Below are positions 2,554 to 15,178 of a stretch of 46,766 bases of DNA, piece by piece (position 1 is the stretch's first letter; the number at the start of each line of letters is the position of its first letter). A program made the translations under genes and the position numbers. The notes under the pieces were generated by a model. That model did not search any database and had not been told where the DNA came from. It saw only the letters and a program-made list of their open reading frames with translations. Source of the stretch: a virus. Taxonomy: Duplodnaviria; Heunggongvirae; Uroviricota; Caudoviricetes. The stretch is from the IMG/VR virus record IMGVR_UViG_2877958089_000004; one strand, 5' to 3'.

Positions 2554-2916
2554 ATGTTAAAGCTATTTGCAAAGTACACCTCGATTGGTGTGCTGAACAC
2601 ACTTATACACTGGGTGGTTTTTGGTGTATGTATCTATGCCGCGCATACCAATCAGGCTCTGGCAAACTTCGCAGGTTTTGTTGTGGCTGTGAGTTTTAGC
2701 TTCTTCGCGAATGCAAAATTCACATTCAAAGCATCGACTACAACGATGCGCTACATGTTATATGTCGGGTTCATGGGAACACTGAGTGCAACTATTGGAT
2801 GGGCTGCTGATAGATGTTCACTTCCTCCAATTGTCACTCTCGTCACCTTCTCCGCCATCAGCCTGGTGTGCGGTTTCGTCTATTCAAAGTTCATTGTCTT
2901 TAGGGATGCGAAATGA
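2554..2916 (+). CDS. gtrA: GtrA-family bactoprenol-linked glucose translocase (flippase)
   Basis: 120-aa small 4-TM protein, first gene of a three-gene gtr operon next to the integrase. Confidence 0.85.
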
Positions 2917-3830
2917 AGATATCTCTTGTAGTTCCTGTCTTCAATGAAGAAGAAGCGATACCAATTTTTTATAAAACGGTACGTGAATTCGAAGAGTTGA
3001 AGCCATATGAAGTGGAAATTGTTTTCATAAATGATGGAAGCAAAGACGCTACGGAGTCAATTATTAATGCTATGGCTGTTTCAGATCCCCTAGTTGTTCC
3101 GCTGTCATTTACGCGCAACTTTGGTAAAGAACCAGCATTGTTTGCAGGGTTAGACCATGCAACTGGCGATGCCGTGATTCCAATTGATGTTGACCTGCAA
3201 GACCCGATTGAGGTCATTCCTCATCTTATTGAAAAGTGGCAGGCAGGTGCTGATATGGTGCTGGCAAAGCGTTCAGACCGCTCTACAGATGGACGTCTAA
3301 AGCGAAAAACTGCTGAGTGGTTCTATAAGCTCCACAATAAAATAAGCAACCCAACGATTGAAGAGAATGTTGGTGATTTCCGGTTAATGAGCCGTGAGGT
3401 TGTCGAAAATATCAAGCTTATGCCAGAGCGCAACCTTTTTATGAAAGGGGTACTGAGTTGGGTAGGAGGATCGACCGACATCGTCGAATATTCCCGCGCA
3501 GAACGTGTTGCTGGTAATTCAAAATTCAATGGATGGAAATTGTGGAATCTTGCGCTCGAAGGGATTACAAGCTTCTCAACATTTCCCCTGCGCATATGGA
3601 CTTATATCGGGTTAGTGGTAGCTGTCCTAGCATTTCTGTATGGCGCATGGATGATATTTGACACGCTCGCATTTGGAAATGCTGTACGAGGATACCCTTC
3701 ACTGCTGGTGTCCATTCTGTTTCTTGGAGGAATACAACTAATCGGTATAGGCGTGCTCGGAGAGTATATAGGACGTATCTACATTGAAACAAAATCAAGA
3801 CCTAAATATATTTTGAAGGCCAGAAAATGA
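2913..3830 (+). CDS. gtrB: GtrB bactoprenol glucosyltransferase (family 2 glycosyltransferase)
   Basis: 305 aa; N-terminal GT2 domain (VVPVFNEEE...DGSKD...DVDLQDP) with C-terminal TM segments; start overlaps the gtrA stop. Confidence 0.9.
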
Positions 3831-5257
3831 ATTTCAATTCTTTTTTTAAACAGCGAGTTACTATAATTATAGGATTGGCTTATGCATTGCCTATAGTTTT
3901 GAATGGCATCGATTACATTGATGATATGGGTAGGGCCATATCTGGGTATGGATGGAGTGACGACGGTAGATTTGTATCAACTTTATTAATGCAGATATTG
4001 TCATTTAGCGACAAAGTATTGCCACTTTTCCCTTATGCGACTATATTATCTGTAATAATAACATGCTTTTCAGGATTCATTATTTCAGAATTATTTTTCA
4101 AACATTCTAAATATAAATTTATTTTTTCTTTAGTGTTACTAACATCACCTTTTTTTCTTGAAAACCTATCATACAAGTATGATTCTCTACCTATGTCGCT
4201 TTCTGTTTTAATGGCAATAGTACCTTTTACATTATACAGAAATCATATATTTATCCCGATATCAATACTTTGTCTTGTTGCTGTATTGGGATTGTATCAG
4301 ACTACGTCTATGTTATATTTCGCCGTGACAATATGTATTATCATGTCTTCTGTATTAGACGGTAAAAATAAGACAGAATGTTTTAAATTAGCATGCAAGA
4401 CACTAGTGTCATTTGTTGTTGCATTTTTAATATATAAGTCATTAGTTCTTTTGCTAGCATTAAATGTTCCTCGCTCGCAATTTATAAGCATAAACAGCGA
4501 AATACTTAATTTATTAATAGAAAGAACAAAGCATTTCCATATAATGTTAAAGGCTCTTTTTGATAGTGGGTATTTTATTGCCTCAGCACCATTTGTAATT
4601 CTGTTTGCAATGTCTTTAGTTTATCTTCTGGCATTAAGAAAATCATTAACTATATTTTTCATTATAGTATTATGCTTTATGTCTTTGTTAATATTGACAA
4701 TGATGCCAAATATTTTGCTAAAGGAGATTTTTTACACAGCCAGAACTATGATTTGTTTTCCAGCAATTATTATTGCAATGCTTATAGTTATGGATCGATG
4801 TAAAATTGAAAACGTCAATAAGCTTTGCTTTATATTTGTTATATTATTAGTGAGTTACTCTTTTTCACTATCTGCAAAACTTGGGGCCGTAATAAAAAAT
4901 AACAATGAGGCTAGCAATTACTTTGCGGGAAGAATAACCTCTGATATCTCAACGATAGATTCGTCGGATACTTACAAAATTGTAATCTCTGGTAGAGTAC
5001 CGATTAGCGCTAAAAGCAAGCTATTATATAATGAAACTCCATTTTTAAATTGGCTTGCCCCTGTTTATGCTTCTGGTGGTTGGGGGTGGGGGGTCGTAGA
5101 TCTTTCAAGATATGCAGATTTCAAATGGCAGGAAAATGAAACATTTATCCTACAAAACAAATGCCATATTGCTCCATTATTTAGCAATAAATTTTATGCC
5201 ATAAGAAAGAAAGATAACGTATATATTATAGATTTTAACTACAAAGATTGCATATAG
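3827..5257 (+). CDS. Serotype-specific O-antigen glucosyltransferase (GtrC-type polytopic membrane protein)
   Basis: 476-aa highly hydrophobic protein, strongly AT-rich, third gene of the gtrAB operon, where the variable serotype-specific enzyme lies. Confidence 0.7.
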
Positions 5258-5262
5258 TAATA

Positions 5263-5308
5263 TGCCTACCCATTTATAATTTAAAACATTTTACGAATGG
5301 GTAGGCAG
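5263..5308. terminator. Hairpin between convergent gtrC and tailspike genes (possible bidirectional terminator)
   Basis: 12-bp inverted repeat TGCCTACCCATT / AATGGGTAGGCA with an AT-rich 22-nt loop, exactly between the two convergent stop codons. Confidence 0.45.
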
Positions 5309-5319
5309 CTATTAGGAGA

Positions 5320-7197
5320 TCAGTTAATCCTTATTTTTACAGCAGTTCCAGTTCTATATAACGCCCCAACACCGACACCGACACCGTAATTTTGCGGTGT
5401 ATCATCAGGCACATCCCTAAACACAAATCCTCTCAAAACATCTCCGCTATCGTATGCATAGTTATTAACATATGATCCTCCATTGACGCTCCTTGGTTTG
5501 TTAGATATAGAGTTATCTATTACTCTTGTTTCTGCGCCATCAGTATAAATAGAATACTGACCAGAGCAATCAACAAGCTGACCATCTATAGTAACTTTCC
5601 CTTTATTGTTAAGAACCTTAACAGCAGCAAGGCGCGGGCCATACATAGGGTAAGATGGATCTGGGGCATCGTTTGGGAATGTAGCATGAATAGTCCCATT
5701 AAAATATAAATCCATGTTGCTATTTGCTCCAAAAACCAATACTGCCGCATCATCATTTTTCAGGGAGCCGGCACCATTTATTTTCAACGAGCTAAATATA
5801 TTATTCACACCGTATCCAGATCCATCGCCAATAGCTACAATAGCGGCTCGTTTAAAAATATCAAACCACATACCTGTCATAGTTAACCATGACGTAGCGA
5901 CCATGTGAACACCTATACGACAATACTCTATTTTACCTCCAATAAACGAATTTCCGAAGTTTGGTCCACAAGCCACAGCCGCACCTCGATAATCATATAC
6001 ATCATCTTCGTCAAAATAAGTTTCCCCATGATAACCAATATCATTGAAATAGCAGCCTATGAAAATACTATCTGACAATGTAAATCGTGAAAGGATGCCA
6101 TTTTCTTTAAGAGTGGTAAACTGGCATAGTGTGACCCGCATTAAACCAGCCATATCAGAACGCAGACCAATTAATGCATCTCTAAAAACACAGGCCGTTA
6201 TCTCATGATTATGATAAGCAACTGTTTGCTGTGACCTGTCTCCATATTCAATACACGTGCAATTTGAAGCTGAGCCATCAATGTCAATATACGAAATAGA
6301 TGTCTGTTTTTTCTTTCTCACATCAACAATAGGATCTGCATATCCAATAGTATGGTCATCTGCTAGCTTAAGTGTAGATTTAAGATTAAAACCTGATGAA
6401 GAGTAAGCCCACGCAGATTTGATGCCTGTGAGAGCCTTGTTATCTTGCATAACTACAGGTGTCTTAATAAACAAATACCTGTCTACTAGCACCTCAACCC
6501 CATACGGACTGTTCAGAGCTTTATTTATTGGTATAGCGTTATCGGTTTCGGGACCTGGCTTAGCTCCGTAAAAAATCGCATTCAGAGGTCCATTGAAAGT
6601 CCCAGCATACAATCCATCCCTCACAACCTGACCTACCGCTCCAGTATTAATGACAATACCATCATCTGGATCTAGGTTTCGATTGCTGTAATATGTGAAA
6701 CGCCCCCCAGCTAAATCGCCAGTTTCGAATCCGTATTTCGCTATAATAATTGTTCCGTCTTCAAAATCATCTCCTGTTTCGGCAGCAATATCTACGTATC
6801 TGAATCCTAGTCCGCCAATAAGTGTATATCCATTTTCCCCTTCAATTAACCCCCTAAATTGATCTGGGTCATACTTAATTATGTTTGGATAGTAGAACTG
6901 CTGTGTACCATACGCATCATAAACAGCCATAGAATGGCCTTGCACAGTTACGAACTTGGCAATCTGTCCGTTATATACCGGATATCCAGCAGCATTAATG
7001 ATGATTGGTTGCGGAACAGGAACGTGAGAGCCGTCTTCGTTCTCCACATAAACCTGAATCTGGTTTTCAGGATTTACCGGGTCAGTGTCAATTTTACCGA
7101 TATAAATTTTGCCATTAGCTACGGCTTTAAAAGAACGCGCCATAGTGAAGAGTTGCGAAGGCATGCTTACCACAACATTTGCGGTGATATCTGACAT
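5320..7197 (-). CDS. Tailspike protein: P22-type head-binding N-terminus with a divergent receptor-binding domain
   Basis: N-terminus [46 protein letters not shown] closely matches the conserved P22/Sf6 tailspike head-binding domain; the rest differs from P22. Start placed at the ATG at 7197 with a GGAG RBS; the ORF track extends to 7245. Confidence 0.85.
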
Positions 7198-7318
7198 TTC
7201 ATTGCTCCAGACGAATGATATGATGCAACCATGAAGAGATTGCATACCGAAATGGTACTATTGAGTATTTATCCAGTAAGTTACGATGCCATTCCACCCA
7301 ACTGGTGAGGCATCAAGG

Positions 7319-7579
7319 ATGTACAGCAAATACGACGAGGCGCAGTTTCACTTGAGACTTCCGCATGAACTCCACGCGAAAATTAAACAGCGCGCGAAGA
7401 TGAATAACAGGTCGCTGAACTCAGAGATAATTGCAGCGATTGAAGAATCATTGGATAAACAAAGCTCTGCATCAGTTTACATTGACGATGCAGAGCGTAT
7501 GGCAGAACAACAATCGGATATGGTTAAGAAAATTGTCTTTGATACGCTCAAGAAGCTATATAAAAAAGACAGTAGCTAA
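7319..7579 (+). CDS. mnt: Mnt/Arc-family ribbon-helix-helix repressor
   Basis: 86 aa; FHLRLPHELHAKIKQRAKMNNRSLNSEII...AERMAEQQSDMVKKIVFDTLKKLYKK resembles P22 Mnt; lies between tailspike and gp16 homologues as in the P22 immI region. Confidence 0.7.
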   Translation: MYSKYDEAQFHLRLPHELHAKIKQRAKMNNRSLNSEIIAAIEESLDKQSSASVYIDDAERMAEQQSDMVKKIVFDTLKKLYKKDSS

Positions 7580-11396: not shown

Positions 11397-12009
11397 TTAA
11401 AACAACGATCCAAGCAGGCCAAGTCCGCCGCCAATTGCCGCACCTAATCCAGTGCCAAGTCCGGGAACAATAGAGCCAAGAGCAGCGCCAGTCATAGCCC
11501 CTGAAGCTCCGCCGCTAATTGCTGTCTGAAGGCCTGATGGTTTATTGGCGTTAGCAGCGGCAAGTGCTGCGCTTTGCTGTGCAATGCTGCTCATGTTGTT
11601 GGCGTACGTCTGCCCGGCGTTTGCCTGACCTTGCAGCGCACCAAGCCCAACGTTTGCCAGATTGTTGTAATTGCTCATCTGATTTGATAACCAAGACTGA
11701 CCGAGTGTCGGAGCGATCGTAGCCAGTTGATTGCTTGTGGCTGTCGAACCAAGTCCACCCGTCGCCTCCGCAGCAGCAAGACTCTGGTAACGCGCCTGCC
11801 CTGCAAGGTCTTTATACTGCTGAGAGTTGTAATACTGATTAAGTGCCTGCCCCTGACCTTCTAAACTGGAAAGGTTCTGAAGCTGGTTAACATACTGCTC
11901 CGCAAGAGGCGTGAACGGAGCAAGGTTTTTCATGATCGTCTGCCACTGCTGATTTTGCAGATCTGCAGCATACTTCTGAGCTTCTGCTGCATACTTTGCG
12001 CTTTTATCA
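11397..12009 (-). CDS. Ejection protein, P22 gp7-like; 5' end lost in assembly gap (partial)
   Basis: Gly/Ala-rich C-terminus; the reading frame stays open upstream of the annotated ATG (…DKSAKYAAEAQKYAADLQNQQWQTI-MKNLAPF…) and runs into the N run at 12010. Confidence 0.6.
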
Positions 12010-12109
12010 NNNNNNNNNNNNNNNNNNNNNNNNNNNNNNNNNNNNNNNNNNNNNNNNNNNNNNNNNNNNNNNNNNNNNNNNNNNNNNNNNNNNNNNNNNN
12101 NNNNNNNNN
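12010..12109. other. Assembly gap (100 N)
   Basis: Run of exactly 100 N. Confidence 0.99.
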
Positions 12110-12452
12110 AGAGAATCCTTAGCGTTGTGGTGAATGCGGCTCAGCGCACGCGGGTTAAGGTTGAGGCTGACAGTCGACCTTCTGTGGATACCCACCCGCC
12201 TGGTGTGCAACCTTCGCCAGGCACCGGGAGGCACCCGGCACCACAACTTTATGCTGTGTGTAGTCCTGGCGGTACCAGTTTGTACCCTTGCTTCCGGCTG
12301 GTACCGTCCTTTTTTGCAAAACAGAGAAGAGCATCACCGGACGACGGGCTCATAACCCAATCCATCCGGGCGGCTGCCACCGCAGGTGTTCTTCTCTGTT
12401 TTGTGGAGAAACCAACCGACCTTGCAGGGTCGATATGATGAGGAGCAGCAAA

Positions 12453-12815
12453 ATGGCTAGCGAACGCAGTACTGATGTGCAGGCATTTATCGGGGAGCTG
12501 GACGGCGGCGTATTTGAAACCAAAATCGGCGCAGTTCTCAGTGAGGTCGCTTCCGGTGTGATGAACACGAAAACCAAAGGGAAGGTCTCACTCAATCTGG
12601 AAATCGAACCGTTTGATGAGAACCGTGTGAAAATCAAACACAAACTCTCATATGTTCGCCCAACTAACCGCGGGAAAATTTCCGAAGAAGACACCACCGA
12701 AACGCCGATGTATGTCAATCGCGGTGGTCGCCTGACTATTCTGCAGGAAGACCAGGGACAATTACTGACTCTTGCCGGTGAACCTGACGGAAAACTCCGC
12801 GCAGCAGGTCGTTAA
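12453..12815 (+). CDS. yfdP: YfdP-like hypothetical protein
   Basis: 120 aa from MASERSTDVQAFIGELDGG... with GAGGAG RBS 7 nt upstream; recognised as a homologue of E. coli K-12 CPS-53 YfdP. Confidence 0.7.
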   Translation: MASERSTDVQAFIGELDGGVFETKIGAVLSEVASGVMNTKTKGKVSLNLEIEPFDENRVKIKHKLSYVRPTNRGKISEEDTTETPMYVNRGGRLTILQEDQGQLLTLAGEPDGKLRAAGR

Positions 12816-12880
12816 TATCGTTCGTAATAAACTGATTATTTATCTCATCACTGAATATCTTTATATAGTGAGGACTTATT

Positions 12881-13705
12881 ATGTCTCAGAACTTAGACGC
12901 AACCGCAATTAATCAAATCCATGCCCTTATTTCTGCTCAGGGTGTTAATGAAATTATCAGTAAGATTGGTGCCGATGCTGTGGCATTGCCTGAGAATTTC
13001 CGCATTCATGATCTGGAAAAATTTAATTTAAATCGCTTCCGTTTCCGTGGTGCACTTTCCACTGCCAGCATCGATGATTTTACCCGTTATTCTAAAGATC
13101 TTGCAGATGAAGGCACCCGCTGCTTTATCGATGCCGATAATATGCGTGCCGTCAGTGTGCTTAACCTGGGTACTATTGATGAGCCAGGTCACGCAGATAA
13201 CACTGCCACTCTCAAACTGAAAAAGACAGCACCGTTCTCTGCTCTGTTGTCTGTTAACGGCGAGCGTAACTCCCAGAAGTCACTGGCAGAATGGATCGAA
13301 GACTGGGCCGACTACCTTGTGGGCTTTGATGCTAATGGTGACGCCATTCAAGCAACAAAAGCGGCTGCGGCAGTCCGTAAAATCACGATTGAAGCAAACC
13401 AGACCGCTGATTTTGAAGATAATGACTTCAGCGGCAAACGCTCCCTGATGGAGTCTGTCGAAGCGAAGACCAAAGACATTATGCCAGTGGCATTTGAATT
13501 TAAATGCGTTCCGTTTGAAGGTCTGAAAGAACGTCCGTTTAAATTACGCCTCAGCATTATCACTGGCGATCGTCCTGTACTGGTTCTGCGCATTATTCAG
13601 CTGGAAGCGGTGCAGGAAGAAATGGCTAACGAATTTCGTGATCTGCTTGTTGAGAAATTCAAAGACAGCAAAGTAGAAACCTTTATTGGTACTTTCACCG
13701 CCTGA
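12881..13705 (+). CDS. yfdQ: YfdQ-like protein (DUF2303 family)
   Basis: 274-aa ORF, same length and recognised similarity to K-12 CPS-53 YfdQ. Confidence 0.75.
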
Positions 13706-13718
13706 TTTCATTACTGCA

Positions 13719-13745
13719 AATGCCCCTGCGGGGGCATTTATGGAA
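13719..13745 (+). terminator. Hairpin downstream of yfdQ (possible intrinsic terminator)
   Basis: AAATGCCCCTGCGGGGGCATTTAT: GC stem GCCCC/GGGGC followed by a short T-rich tract. Confidence 0.45.
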
Positions 13746-13832
13746 ACGTAATTAACTCAATAATCACCGGATGGTGAGGGCTTCCTTTTACCAGAATTCA
13801 GCGCGGTGCAGTGCATATACGTGGAGAACAAA

Positions 13833-14369
13833 ATGTCATTTATTAAAACTTTTTCCGGGAAGCATTTTTATTATGACAAGATAAATAAAGACGACATCGA
13901 TATTAACGATATCGCGGTTTCCCTTTCAAATATCTGTCGCTTTGCCGGTCATCTTTCGCACTTCTACAGCGTCGCCCAACATGCGGTTCTTTGCAGCCAG
14001 CTGGTGCCGCAGGAATTTGCTTTTGAAGCGTTAATGCATGATGCAACAGAAGCGTATTGCCAGGACATTCCCGCACCACTGAAACGCCTTCTTCCTGACT
14101 ATAAACGGATGGAAGAAAAAATAGACGCCGTAATCCGTGAGAAATACGGGTTACCCCCAGTTATGAGTACACCCGTGAAATATGCCGATCTCATCATGCT
14201 GGCAACCGAACGCCGCGATCTCGGGCTTGATGATGGCTCTTTCTGGCCTGTACTGGAAGGCATCCCGGCAACAGAGATGTTCAACGTGATTCCACTGGCA
14301 CCGGGTCATGCCTACGGGATGTTTATGGAACGTTTTAACGATTTATCGGAGTTACGCAAATGCGCATGA
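13833..14369 (+). CDS. yfdR: HD-domain phosphohydrolase, YfbR-like 5'-deoxynucleotidase family (YfdR-like)
   Basis: 178 aa from MSFIKTFSGKHFYY...; HD motif region (…HSVAQHAVL…MHDATEAYCQDIP…); start at 13833 chosen over the upstream in-frame ATG at 13806 to match the 178-aa YfdR length. Confidence 0.75.
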   Translation: MSFIKTFSGKHFYYDKINKDDIDINDIAVSLSNICRFAGHLSHFYSVAQHAVLCSQLVPQEFAFEALMHDATEAYCQDIPAPLKRLLPDYKRMEEKIDAVIREKYGLPPVMSTPVKYADLIMLATERRDLGLDDGSFWPVLEGIPATEMFNVIPLAPGHAYGMFMERFNDLSELRKCA

Positions 14370-14722
14370 ATGTTTTCGAAATGGAAGGGTTTCTTCGCGG
14401 GAAATGTGTACCGCGAGATCTGAAAGTGAACGAAACAAATGCTGAGTACCTGTTACGTAAATTCGACGCGCTTGAAGCTAAATGTGCGGCACTGGAAAAC
14501 AAAATAATACCAGTGTCAGCTGAACTGCCACCAGCAAATGAAAGTGTTCTGTTATTTGATGCTAATGGAGAAGGCTGGCTGATTGGCTGGCGTTCTCTCT
14601 GGTACACCTGGGGACAAAAAGAAACCGGAGAATGGCAGTGGACATTTCAGGTCGGGGACCTTGAAAACGTCAATATCACTCACTGGGCAGTAATGCCAAA
14701 AGCACCGGAGGCTGGAGCATAA
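14360..14722 (+). CDS. yfdS: YfdS-like hypothetical protein
   Basis: 120-aa ORF overlapping the yfdR stop; N-terminal domain paralogous to the ORF at 41557-42102. Confidence 0.7.
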   Translation: MRMNVFEMEGFLRGKCVPRDLKVNETNAEYLLRKFDALEAKCAALENKIIPVSAELPPANESVLLFDANGEGWLIGWRSLWYTWGQKETGEWQWTFQVGDLENVNITHWAVMPKAPEAGA

Positions 14723-14729
14723 TGACCAC

Positions 14730-14829
14730 NNNNNNNNNNNNNNNNNNNNNNNNNNNNNNNNNNNNNNNNNNNNNNNNNNNNNNNNNNNNNNNNNNNNNNN
14801 NNNNNNNNNNNNNNNNNNNNNNNNNNNNN
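14730..14829. other. Assembly gap (100 N)
   Basis: Run of exactly 100 N. Confidence 0.99.
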
Positions 14830-15178
14830 GGCCAATCATTGCGCAGTACATCTGACCGTGGCGGAATTTGCGCGCAGCGAACGATGTGACGCACTGAACG
14901 GTGGTGTTAGTCAGAATGTATCGCCAGAACGCCAGCCCGATTTCCTTGCTGAATCCGCGAATCTCTGGCAGGTACATGGCGTGGCAATCGAATGTCAGCG
15001 GCTGAATCTCCTGATAGTAAACAATGCCGCCAAACTGCCCGTGCACGTTCACCTCAAAGTAACGGCAATCAGGTTTGTAGTCGTATCCATCACCGTTGTT
15101 GCTCCCGGCAATAATGTCAGGGTGATTTCCGACTGCTTCGATCAGGTCGATGTTTCGCGTTGGTTTGAATGTAATCAT
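14830..15178 (-). CDS. P22 gp14-like ejection/assembly protein; 3' end lost in assembly gap (partial)
   Basis: ORF starts [23 protein letters not shown]... at 15178 and runs into the N run; position directly downstream of the tail-needle gene as in P22. Confidence 0.55.

Follow-up and report, generated by a model that had tools for sequence, protein, structure and literature searches.

A P22-like prophage tailspike with an uncharacterized receptor-binding domain, predicted to be specific for Escherichia coli O23 and linked to a gtrABC cassette

The tailspike gene described here encodes a head-binding domain of the P22 type followed by a long C-terminal region of different sequence, and it lies next to a gtr cassette. 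This raises the questions of which surface polysaccharide the C-terminal region recognizes and of how closely it is tied to the neighboring genes. The window (the whole 46,766-nucleotide stretch of viral DNA that was analyzed) contains, in plus-strand order, yfdC, int, gtrA, gtrB, gtrC, the tailspike gene in convergent orientation, a gene for an Arc/Mnt-family repressor, and genes for ejection proteins resembling gp7, gp20, and gp16. The tailspike gene occupies 5320-7197 on the minus strand (an earlier note on this DNA gave no strand) and consists of 625 codons and a stop. The open reading frame extends from 5320 to 7245, and the ATG at 7197 is the biologically sensible start, since a GGAG motif lies 8 nt upstream and the alignment with all homologues begins there; with this start the length of 625 residues claimed in the earlier note is correct. 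In the databases the identical protein is E. coli WP_249926476.1, and CP028309.1 is one record that encodes it. Near the C-terminus, the hexanucleotide repeat GGTGTC GGTGTC GGTGTT (5368-5385, minus strand) has one unit more than in all 623-residue alleles and accounts for a Gly-Val insertion, most likely through replication slippage.

The surroundings of the gene are those of a P22-like prophage. The repressor gene (mnt, 7286-7579, plus strand) is divergent from the tailspike gene, and a gene for an Arc/Mnt repressor is the usual immI-region neighbor of the tailspike. The tailspike gene is found after the ejection proteins and immI (mnt/arc) and beside the conversion genes and the integrase, which is the gene position in P22-like phages. 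In the 99.8%-identical locus of E. coli strain E10 a tRNA-Arg gene (argW) is annotated between int and yfdC, and with the attachment site read from that locus the tailspike belongs to a P22-like (Lederbergvirus-type) prophage at tRNA-Arg argW.

Residues 1-115 (6853-7197, minus strand) constitute a P22-type head-binding domain, the virion adaptor. Pfam profile PF09008 (Head_binding) matches residues 1-113 over all 113 profile positions (E 4.3e-67, 224 bits against a cut-off of 24), and when the protein was compared with all PDB sequences using phmmer, residues 1-115 matched Sf6 gp14 (7sg7) with an E-value of 1e-63; the only other matches were to P22 tailspike constructs and, weakly, to WceF, and all were N-terminal. 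Over the first 115 residues the identity is 101/115 (88%) to Sf6 gp14 and 84/115 (73%) to P22 gp9, in agreement with the close resemblance to the P22 and Sf6 head-binding domains that had been proposed from the sequence. Docking on the tail hub is the known role of this domain in P22 and Sf6, and from the 73-88% identity residues 1-115 would be expected to dock the present spike in the same way.

The similarity ends abruptly. Residues 116-122 (GLIEGEN; 6832-6852, minus strand) form a linker and, judged from the limits of homology, a recombination junction: here other P22-like spikes stop matching, and a spike with a PF18668 adaptor starts matching at position 6831. At the DNA level, other P22-like phages and 1,135 E. 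coli genomes are homologous to the gene only up to about nucleotide 305-357. The receptor-binding module (RBD) that follows comprises residues 123-625 (5323-6831, minus strand). We found no match to residues 116-625 in PDB, Pfam, PHROG, or NCBIfam, and in a tblastn search of 50,697 phage records 182 of the 183 matching records align to the N-terminal adaptor only. Neither this search nor phmmer against PDB revealed homology to the RBDs of P22, Sf6, HK620, or CUS-3 beyond residue ~134. The P22-like alignment thus ends at about residue 115-134, and the remaining ~510 residues diverge from the P22 RBD, as the earlier note had stated.

Relatives of the RBD are few. Among 5.8 billion proteins, searched by indexed words, only 17 clusters were recovered; 1.84 billion representatives, searched exhaustively with a profile, yielded 8 sequences with E<=1e-30 and 25 with E<=1e-10; and a scan of IMG/VR with the alignment of the RBD family returned no relatives; the RBD family is a small, unannotated beta-helix family. 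The tailspike used as a query by itself matches neither PF12708 nor PF13229; among 40 members of the family, 15 match PF12708 and 14 match PF13229, and the family-profile alignment places a helix-cap motif of the PF12708 type at residues 206-230 (6508-6582, minus strand). When the family profile was compared with PDB, GH55, AlgE, GH28, and tailspikes were matched through this cap motif only, and no glycoside hydrolase family can therefore be assigned. The Sf6 RBD matches the family profile at an E-value of only 0.02, likewise on the cap motif.

Members of this family are joined to a variety of N-termini. Three recognized ones other than PF09008 are PF18668, in ~47-kb siphoviruses and in a temperate siphovirus-type prophage, the PF03906 T7 fibre domain, in a T7-like podovirus, and that of a Nouzillyvirus spike; further homologues have N-terminal regions with no adaptor-type Pfam match. 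Together with the break in DNA homology within the gene, the presence of the same RBD on other N-terminal domains bears out the modular exchange that had been suggested. The sole protein of an isolated phage with sequence homology to the RBD is a 717-residue protein of Escherichia phage GaoY1-9D (Drexlerviridae, Nouzillyvirus), which is 41% identical over RBD residues 147-625 and differs in having a siphovirus adaptor; it is annotated as hypothetical, and we found no mention of GaoY1-9D in the literature. Given an identity of 41%, the two proteins probably differ in specificity. A further homologue, of 724 residues (51% identity; L017 6001-9370), is a prophage spike adjoining an Acyl_transf_3 gene, and is a second spike of the family paired with an O-antigen-modifying enzyme, of other chemistry.

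To describe the fold we used an AF2 model of residues 116-625, built as a single chain from a 40-sequence alignment (pLDDT 88.3, pTM 0.85), which supersedes an earlier model of the full-length protein based on 18 sequences (pLDDT 60.8). In the model, a long right-handed parallel beta-helix is flanked by two smaller parts, a subdomain on its N-terminal side and a short domain on its C-terminal side. Foldseek searches of PDB place CBA120 TSP2, the Klebsiella K2 depolymerase Depo32, and the Sf6 tailspike at the top, with a probability of 1.0, TMq values of 0.5-0.57, and identities of 12-15%, and the matches in BFVD are all to tailspikes or depolymerases at no more than 16% identity. The RBD is thus modeled as a tailspike-depolymerase fold with no sequence-level relation to the P22, Sf6, HK620, and CUS-3 domains, which is the outcome of the structural comparison that the earlier note had proposed as a check. 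We also considered whether the RBD is nearly identical to a characterized tailspike, and this is ruled out: the nearest structures are only 12-15% identical, and matches to PDB and phage sequences are confined to the N-terminal domain.

Conservation across the family points to a defined set of polar residues. In the 40 aligned sequences, which extend down to ~17-20% identity, D376, K422, and E424 are strictly conserved, and almost the same holds for D292, N385, and D446. Five of these (D376, N385, K422, E424, and D446) are encoded between 5860 and 6072 on the minus strand, with the codons of D376 at 6070-6072, E424 at 5926-5928, and D446 at 5860-5862. From their conservation, all six are candidate catalytic or substrate-groove residues.

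The distribution of the gene points to a receptor. The full tailspike gene is present in 8 of 5,426 complete E. coli genomes. The galF-gnd locus of strain E10 carries Wzy and Wzx annotated as 'O23 family', and a BLAST search showed the O23 wzy-wzx segment to be complete in 19 of the 5,426 genomes, among which are all eight tailspike carriers. The hypergeometric probability of this overlap is 4e-21, or 1.2e-5 if just two independent acquisitions are counted; the eight carrier genomes are phylogenetically non-independent, and two to three independent acquisitions are the most that can be demonstrated. The carriers belong to two prophage lineages at two attachment sites, one at argW with IntS and ~99.7% nucleotide identity to the window, and one on the dacD side of sbcB-dacD with ~99.0% identity, whose immI region and ejection genes are different. 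Their hosts come from several countries. The best reading of this host association is that the receptor of the RBD is the E. coli O23 O-antigen; the genomic association supports the earlier proposal of a polysaccharide receptor, either O-antigen or capsule, and its identity as O23 is what we infer from the eight of eight carriers. We found no characterized receptor-binding protein for serogroup O23. In the SpikeHunter survey, carried out in silico, one cluster of prophage tailspikes was linked to E. coli O23 and Salmonella O51 (PMC10370184), which is the same kind of inference from a prophage spike to host O23, and this may be the same protein cluster as the tailspike described here; the survey makes no mention of a gtr linkage or a cassette.

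An alternative explanation for the association is that it arises from clonal relatedness and that the target is a capsular (K) polysaccharide or another shared surface glycan. Restriction of the carriers to two prophage lineages limits their independence and favors this explanation, as does the occurrence of capsule depolymerases (Depo32, K2-2 TSP, and DpK2) among the beta-helix spikes of the same fold found with Foldseek; furthermore, receptor-binding protein subtypes that span several O-groups are known and suggest K-antigen receptors (PMC10408124). Nonetheless, we regard a capsular target as quite unlikely, in view of the confinement of all eight carriers to the 19 O23 genomes in spite of their different countries and two attachment sites, and of the tight linkage of the RBD to a gtr cassette, a modifier of the O-antigen rather than of capsule. 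In E10, moreover, the O23 cluster comes after a colanic-acid locus of the ordinary kind, and that position thus holds no group-1 capsule locus.

The RBD is probably a glycoside hydrolase, a view that rests on the predicted fold, the conserved residues, and an O23 cluster with no acidic-sugar pathway. In E10 this cluster contains only glycosyltransferases, wzx, wzy, and galE/gne, with no dedicated acidic-sugar or uronic-acid pathway evident, and a published review names GlcNAc and GalNAc as constituents of the O23 unit; both the gene content of the cluster and these sugars favor a hydrolase over a lyase. It is conceivable that the beta-helix binds the O23 O-antigen non-catalytically, as an adhesin-type spike, or that it acts by lyase or esterase chemistry. 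This would fit the lack of any sequence match to glycoside hydrolase families, with the cap motif alone aligning to solved enzymes, and the catalytic residues are a matter of conjecture. The invariance of D376, K422, and E424 and the near-invariance of D292, N385, and D446 are however the pattern of enzymatic spikes, the nearest structural matches by Foldseek are all enzymes, and the sugars and gene content of O23 speak against a lyase, so that non-catalytic binding or a different chemistry appears unlikely.

We next turn to the gtr genes. The cassette consists of gtrA (2554-2916; PF04138), gtrB (2913-3830; GT2), and gtrC (3827-5257), all on the plus strand, with gtrA and gtrB as its conserved partners, and Pfam matches on an identical locus show the three to form a single O-antigen glucosylation operon. 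The gtrC product is a serotype-specific glucosyltransferase of 476 residues (PF14264; phrog_4829, E 8e-99) that shares no more than 28% identity with any GtrC of the 50,697 phage records, and it is an uncharacterized allele. The gtrC gene has a GC content of 0.31, compared with 0.48 for positions 7600-45000 of the window. The gtrC and tailspike genes converge with a gap of 62 nt, which contains an 11-bp perfect inverted repeat, GCCTACCCATT and AATGGGTAGGC, separated by a 21-nt loop (5264-5306). The repeat is possibly a bidirectional terminator; a consensus terminator scan made no call at this position.

Phase-variable gtr operons typically have four GATC sequences in a Dam/OxyR layout. We looked for this signature upstream of gtrA (2400-2501 in the window) and rejected it, as there is one GATCGATC (2494-2501) and one further GATC only, rather than four. 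Many gtr operons are phase-variable, and that of the Salmonella phage BTP1 is not (PMC4413052).

The suggested link between the tailspike and the adjacent gtr cassette receives support from two observations. Of the 5,426 genomes, the eight with the tailspike RBD are also the ones, and the only ones, that have the gtrC allele, and gtrABC and the RBD part of the tailspike gene lie in one 4.29-kb block of DNA (2554-6831) that is recovered as a single continuous blastn alignment. This alignment, of 4,287 bp, starts exactly where gtrA does (2554), reaches residue ~122 of the tailspike (6831), and is 91.3% identical to contigs of a siphovirus-type prophage; in the second P22-like prophage, at the dacD site, the block is 98.8% identical. 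The siphovirus-type prophage adjoins cusSR, encodes a 638-residue spike with a PF18668 adaptor, and has genes for a tail terminator, an Ig-domain major tail protein, a tape measure, and an NlpC/P60 protein. The continuity of the alignment indicates that the RBD and gtrABC are a transferable unit with breakpoints at functional boundaries.

Two further features of the cusSR prophage (L013 1-14339, L014, L015) are an S24 peptidase gene beyond gtrA and tail genes that are distant from those of isolated phages (Enterobacter phage CobraSix matches less than 10% of the query, at 84% identity).

The pairing of RBD and gtrC is not absolute, since an 87%-identical spike (P0004, in a cluster that includes Citrobacter sedlakii and E. 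coli) adjoins a GtrC that is only 37% identical (L007 9918-11348). At that locus gtrA, gtrB, and the spike are 88-89% identical at the DNA level, which, set beside the 37% for GtrC, indicates replacement of gtrC alone within the cassette. We propose tentatively, and at slightly less than even odds, that recognition of one O-antigen by the RBD and its masking by gtrABC are combined in a single 4.3-kb 'lock-and-key' cassette that moves intact between podovirus-type and siphovirus-type prophages, its breakpoints coinciding precisely with the adaptor/RBD junction and the start of gtrA. If this is true, a phage acquiring a new host specificity would gain the matching superinfection exclusion in the same recombination event.

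Whether the spike is still used by the prophage in the window is a separate matter. The backbone of this prophage is shared by no complete E. coli genome, the best match covering 60%, and it differs from those of both the argW and the dacD carrier lineages. Between the genes for gp14-like and gp7-like ejection proteins (11397-15178) there is a 2.6-kb block of genes on the opposite strand, encoding a DUF2303 protein (12881-13705), a YfbR-like protein (13806-14369), and a DUF551 protein (14360-14722); none of the complete E. coli genomes has the same gene order here. The gp7-like protein is without the first ~53 profile positions, and the gp14-like protein matches only positions 2-116 of 151. 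With both genes truncated, as read from their profile matches, the prophage is probably defective, and the spike may no longer be used here.

This truncation by the 2.6-kb insert lends some weight to the view that the tailspike gene is decaying within a cryptic prophage and has no current function. In three of the eight carrier genomes, NZ_LR882057.1 (L006 7001-10208), NZ_CP116106.1, and NZ_CP182282.1, an IS3-family element interrupts the tailspike gene at about nucleotide 381, shortly past the head-binding domain, splitting it at the adaptor/RBD junction, and the E10 prophage has large deletions. The open reading frame in the window is nevertheless full length with a ribosome-binding site, and the tailspike is at least 99% identical across lineages, with ~130 database sequences, and we consider decay very improbable; moreover, it bears on present use of the protein and not on its identity.

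Taken together, we favor the interpretation, to which we give a probability of about 0.72, that this protein is an O23-binding and O23-hydrolyzing beta-helix tailspike of a P22-like prophage, that the coupled gtrABC genes mask the same receptor, and that the two are exchanged as one cassette. With the spike docked through its head-binding domain, the RBD would recognize the O23 O-antigen and hydrolyze it endolytically, so that the virion works its way down to the outer membrane. In the lysogen, the convergent gtrABC genes would add glucose to the same O-antigen, and this glucosylation would both block re-adsorption and shield the lysogen's LPS from its own spike. A precedent is provided by BTP1 of Salmonella, for which experiments have shown that GtrC confers protection both from the phage's own tailspike and from superinfection (PMC4413052). 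The RBD and gtrABC would be inherited and exchanged as one 4.3-kb cassette across prophage morphotypes.

The tailspike is of the Lederbergvirus type with an uncharacterized RBD subtype and a predicted specificity for O23, and in this respect it follows the standard account of modular tailspikes; the assignment to O23 and the RBD-gtr cassette go beyond the earlier note. A candidate O23-specific tailspike is a possible source of serotyping probes, engineered host ranges, and depolymerase reagents, and co-transfer of an RBD with gtr genes across morphotypes would be a natural example of how the specificities of host range and lysogenic conversion stay matched.

Among known systems, the P22 gp9 tailspike, an endorhamnosidase, and the HK620 tailspike, an endo-N-acetylglucosaminidase acting on O18A1, share the same architecture and role and a PF09008 adaptor that is 73% identical in P22 and ~84% identical in HK620, but their RBDs are unrelated in sequence, the similarity ending at about residue 115-134. 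The Sf6 endorhamnosidase gp14 (PDB 2vbk, 7sg7) is closer in several ways: it is 623 rather than 625 residues long, its head-binding domain is 88% identical, its gene adjoins an integrase and an O-antigen-modification gene, and its RBD is a beta-helix (TMq 0.53). It differs in that the RBD is only 12% identical structurally with no sequence match, the modification gene is oac, encoding an acetyltransferase, rather than gtrABC, and the hosts are S. flexneri Y/X rather than E. coli O23. The best Foldseek match, TSP2 of the Kuttervirus CBA120 (O157-specific; 5w6p, 6w4q; E 2e-8, TMq at most 0.57), is likewise a beta-helix and an O-antigen hydrolase, an activity that is predicted for the present protein, but it is 14% identical, has another adaptor, belongs to a lytic myovirus with four spikes, and acts on another O-antigen. 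For the relationship between spike and gtr genes the nearest parallel is BTP1, also a P22-like prophage, in which an adjacent gtr gene modifies the O-antigen receptor (PMC4413052), as we suggest to be the case here. The BTP1 RBD is P22-like. In the present locus GtrC is a glucosyltransferase of the PF14264 family, and the tailspike and gtrC genes are both novel alleles.
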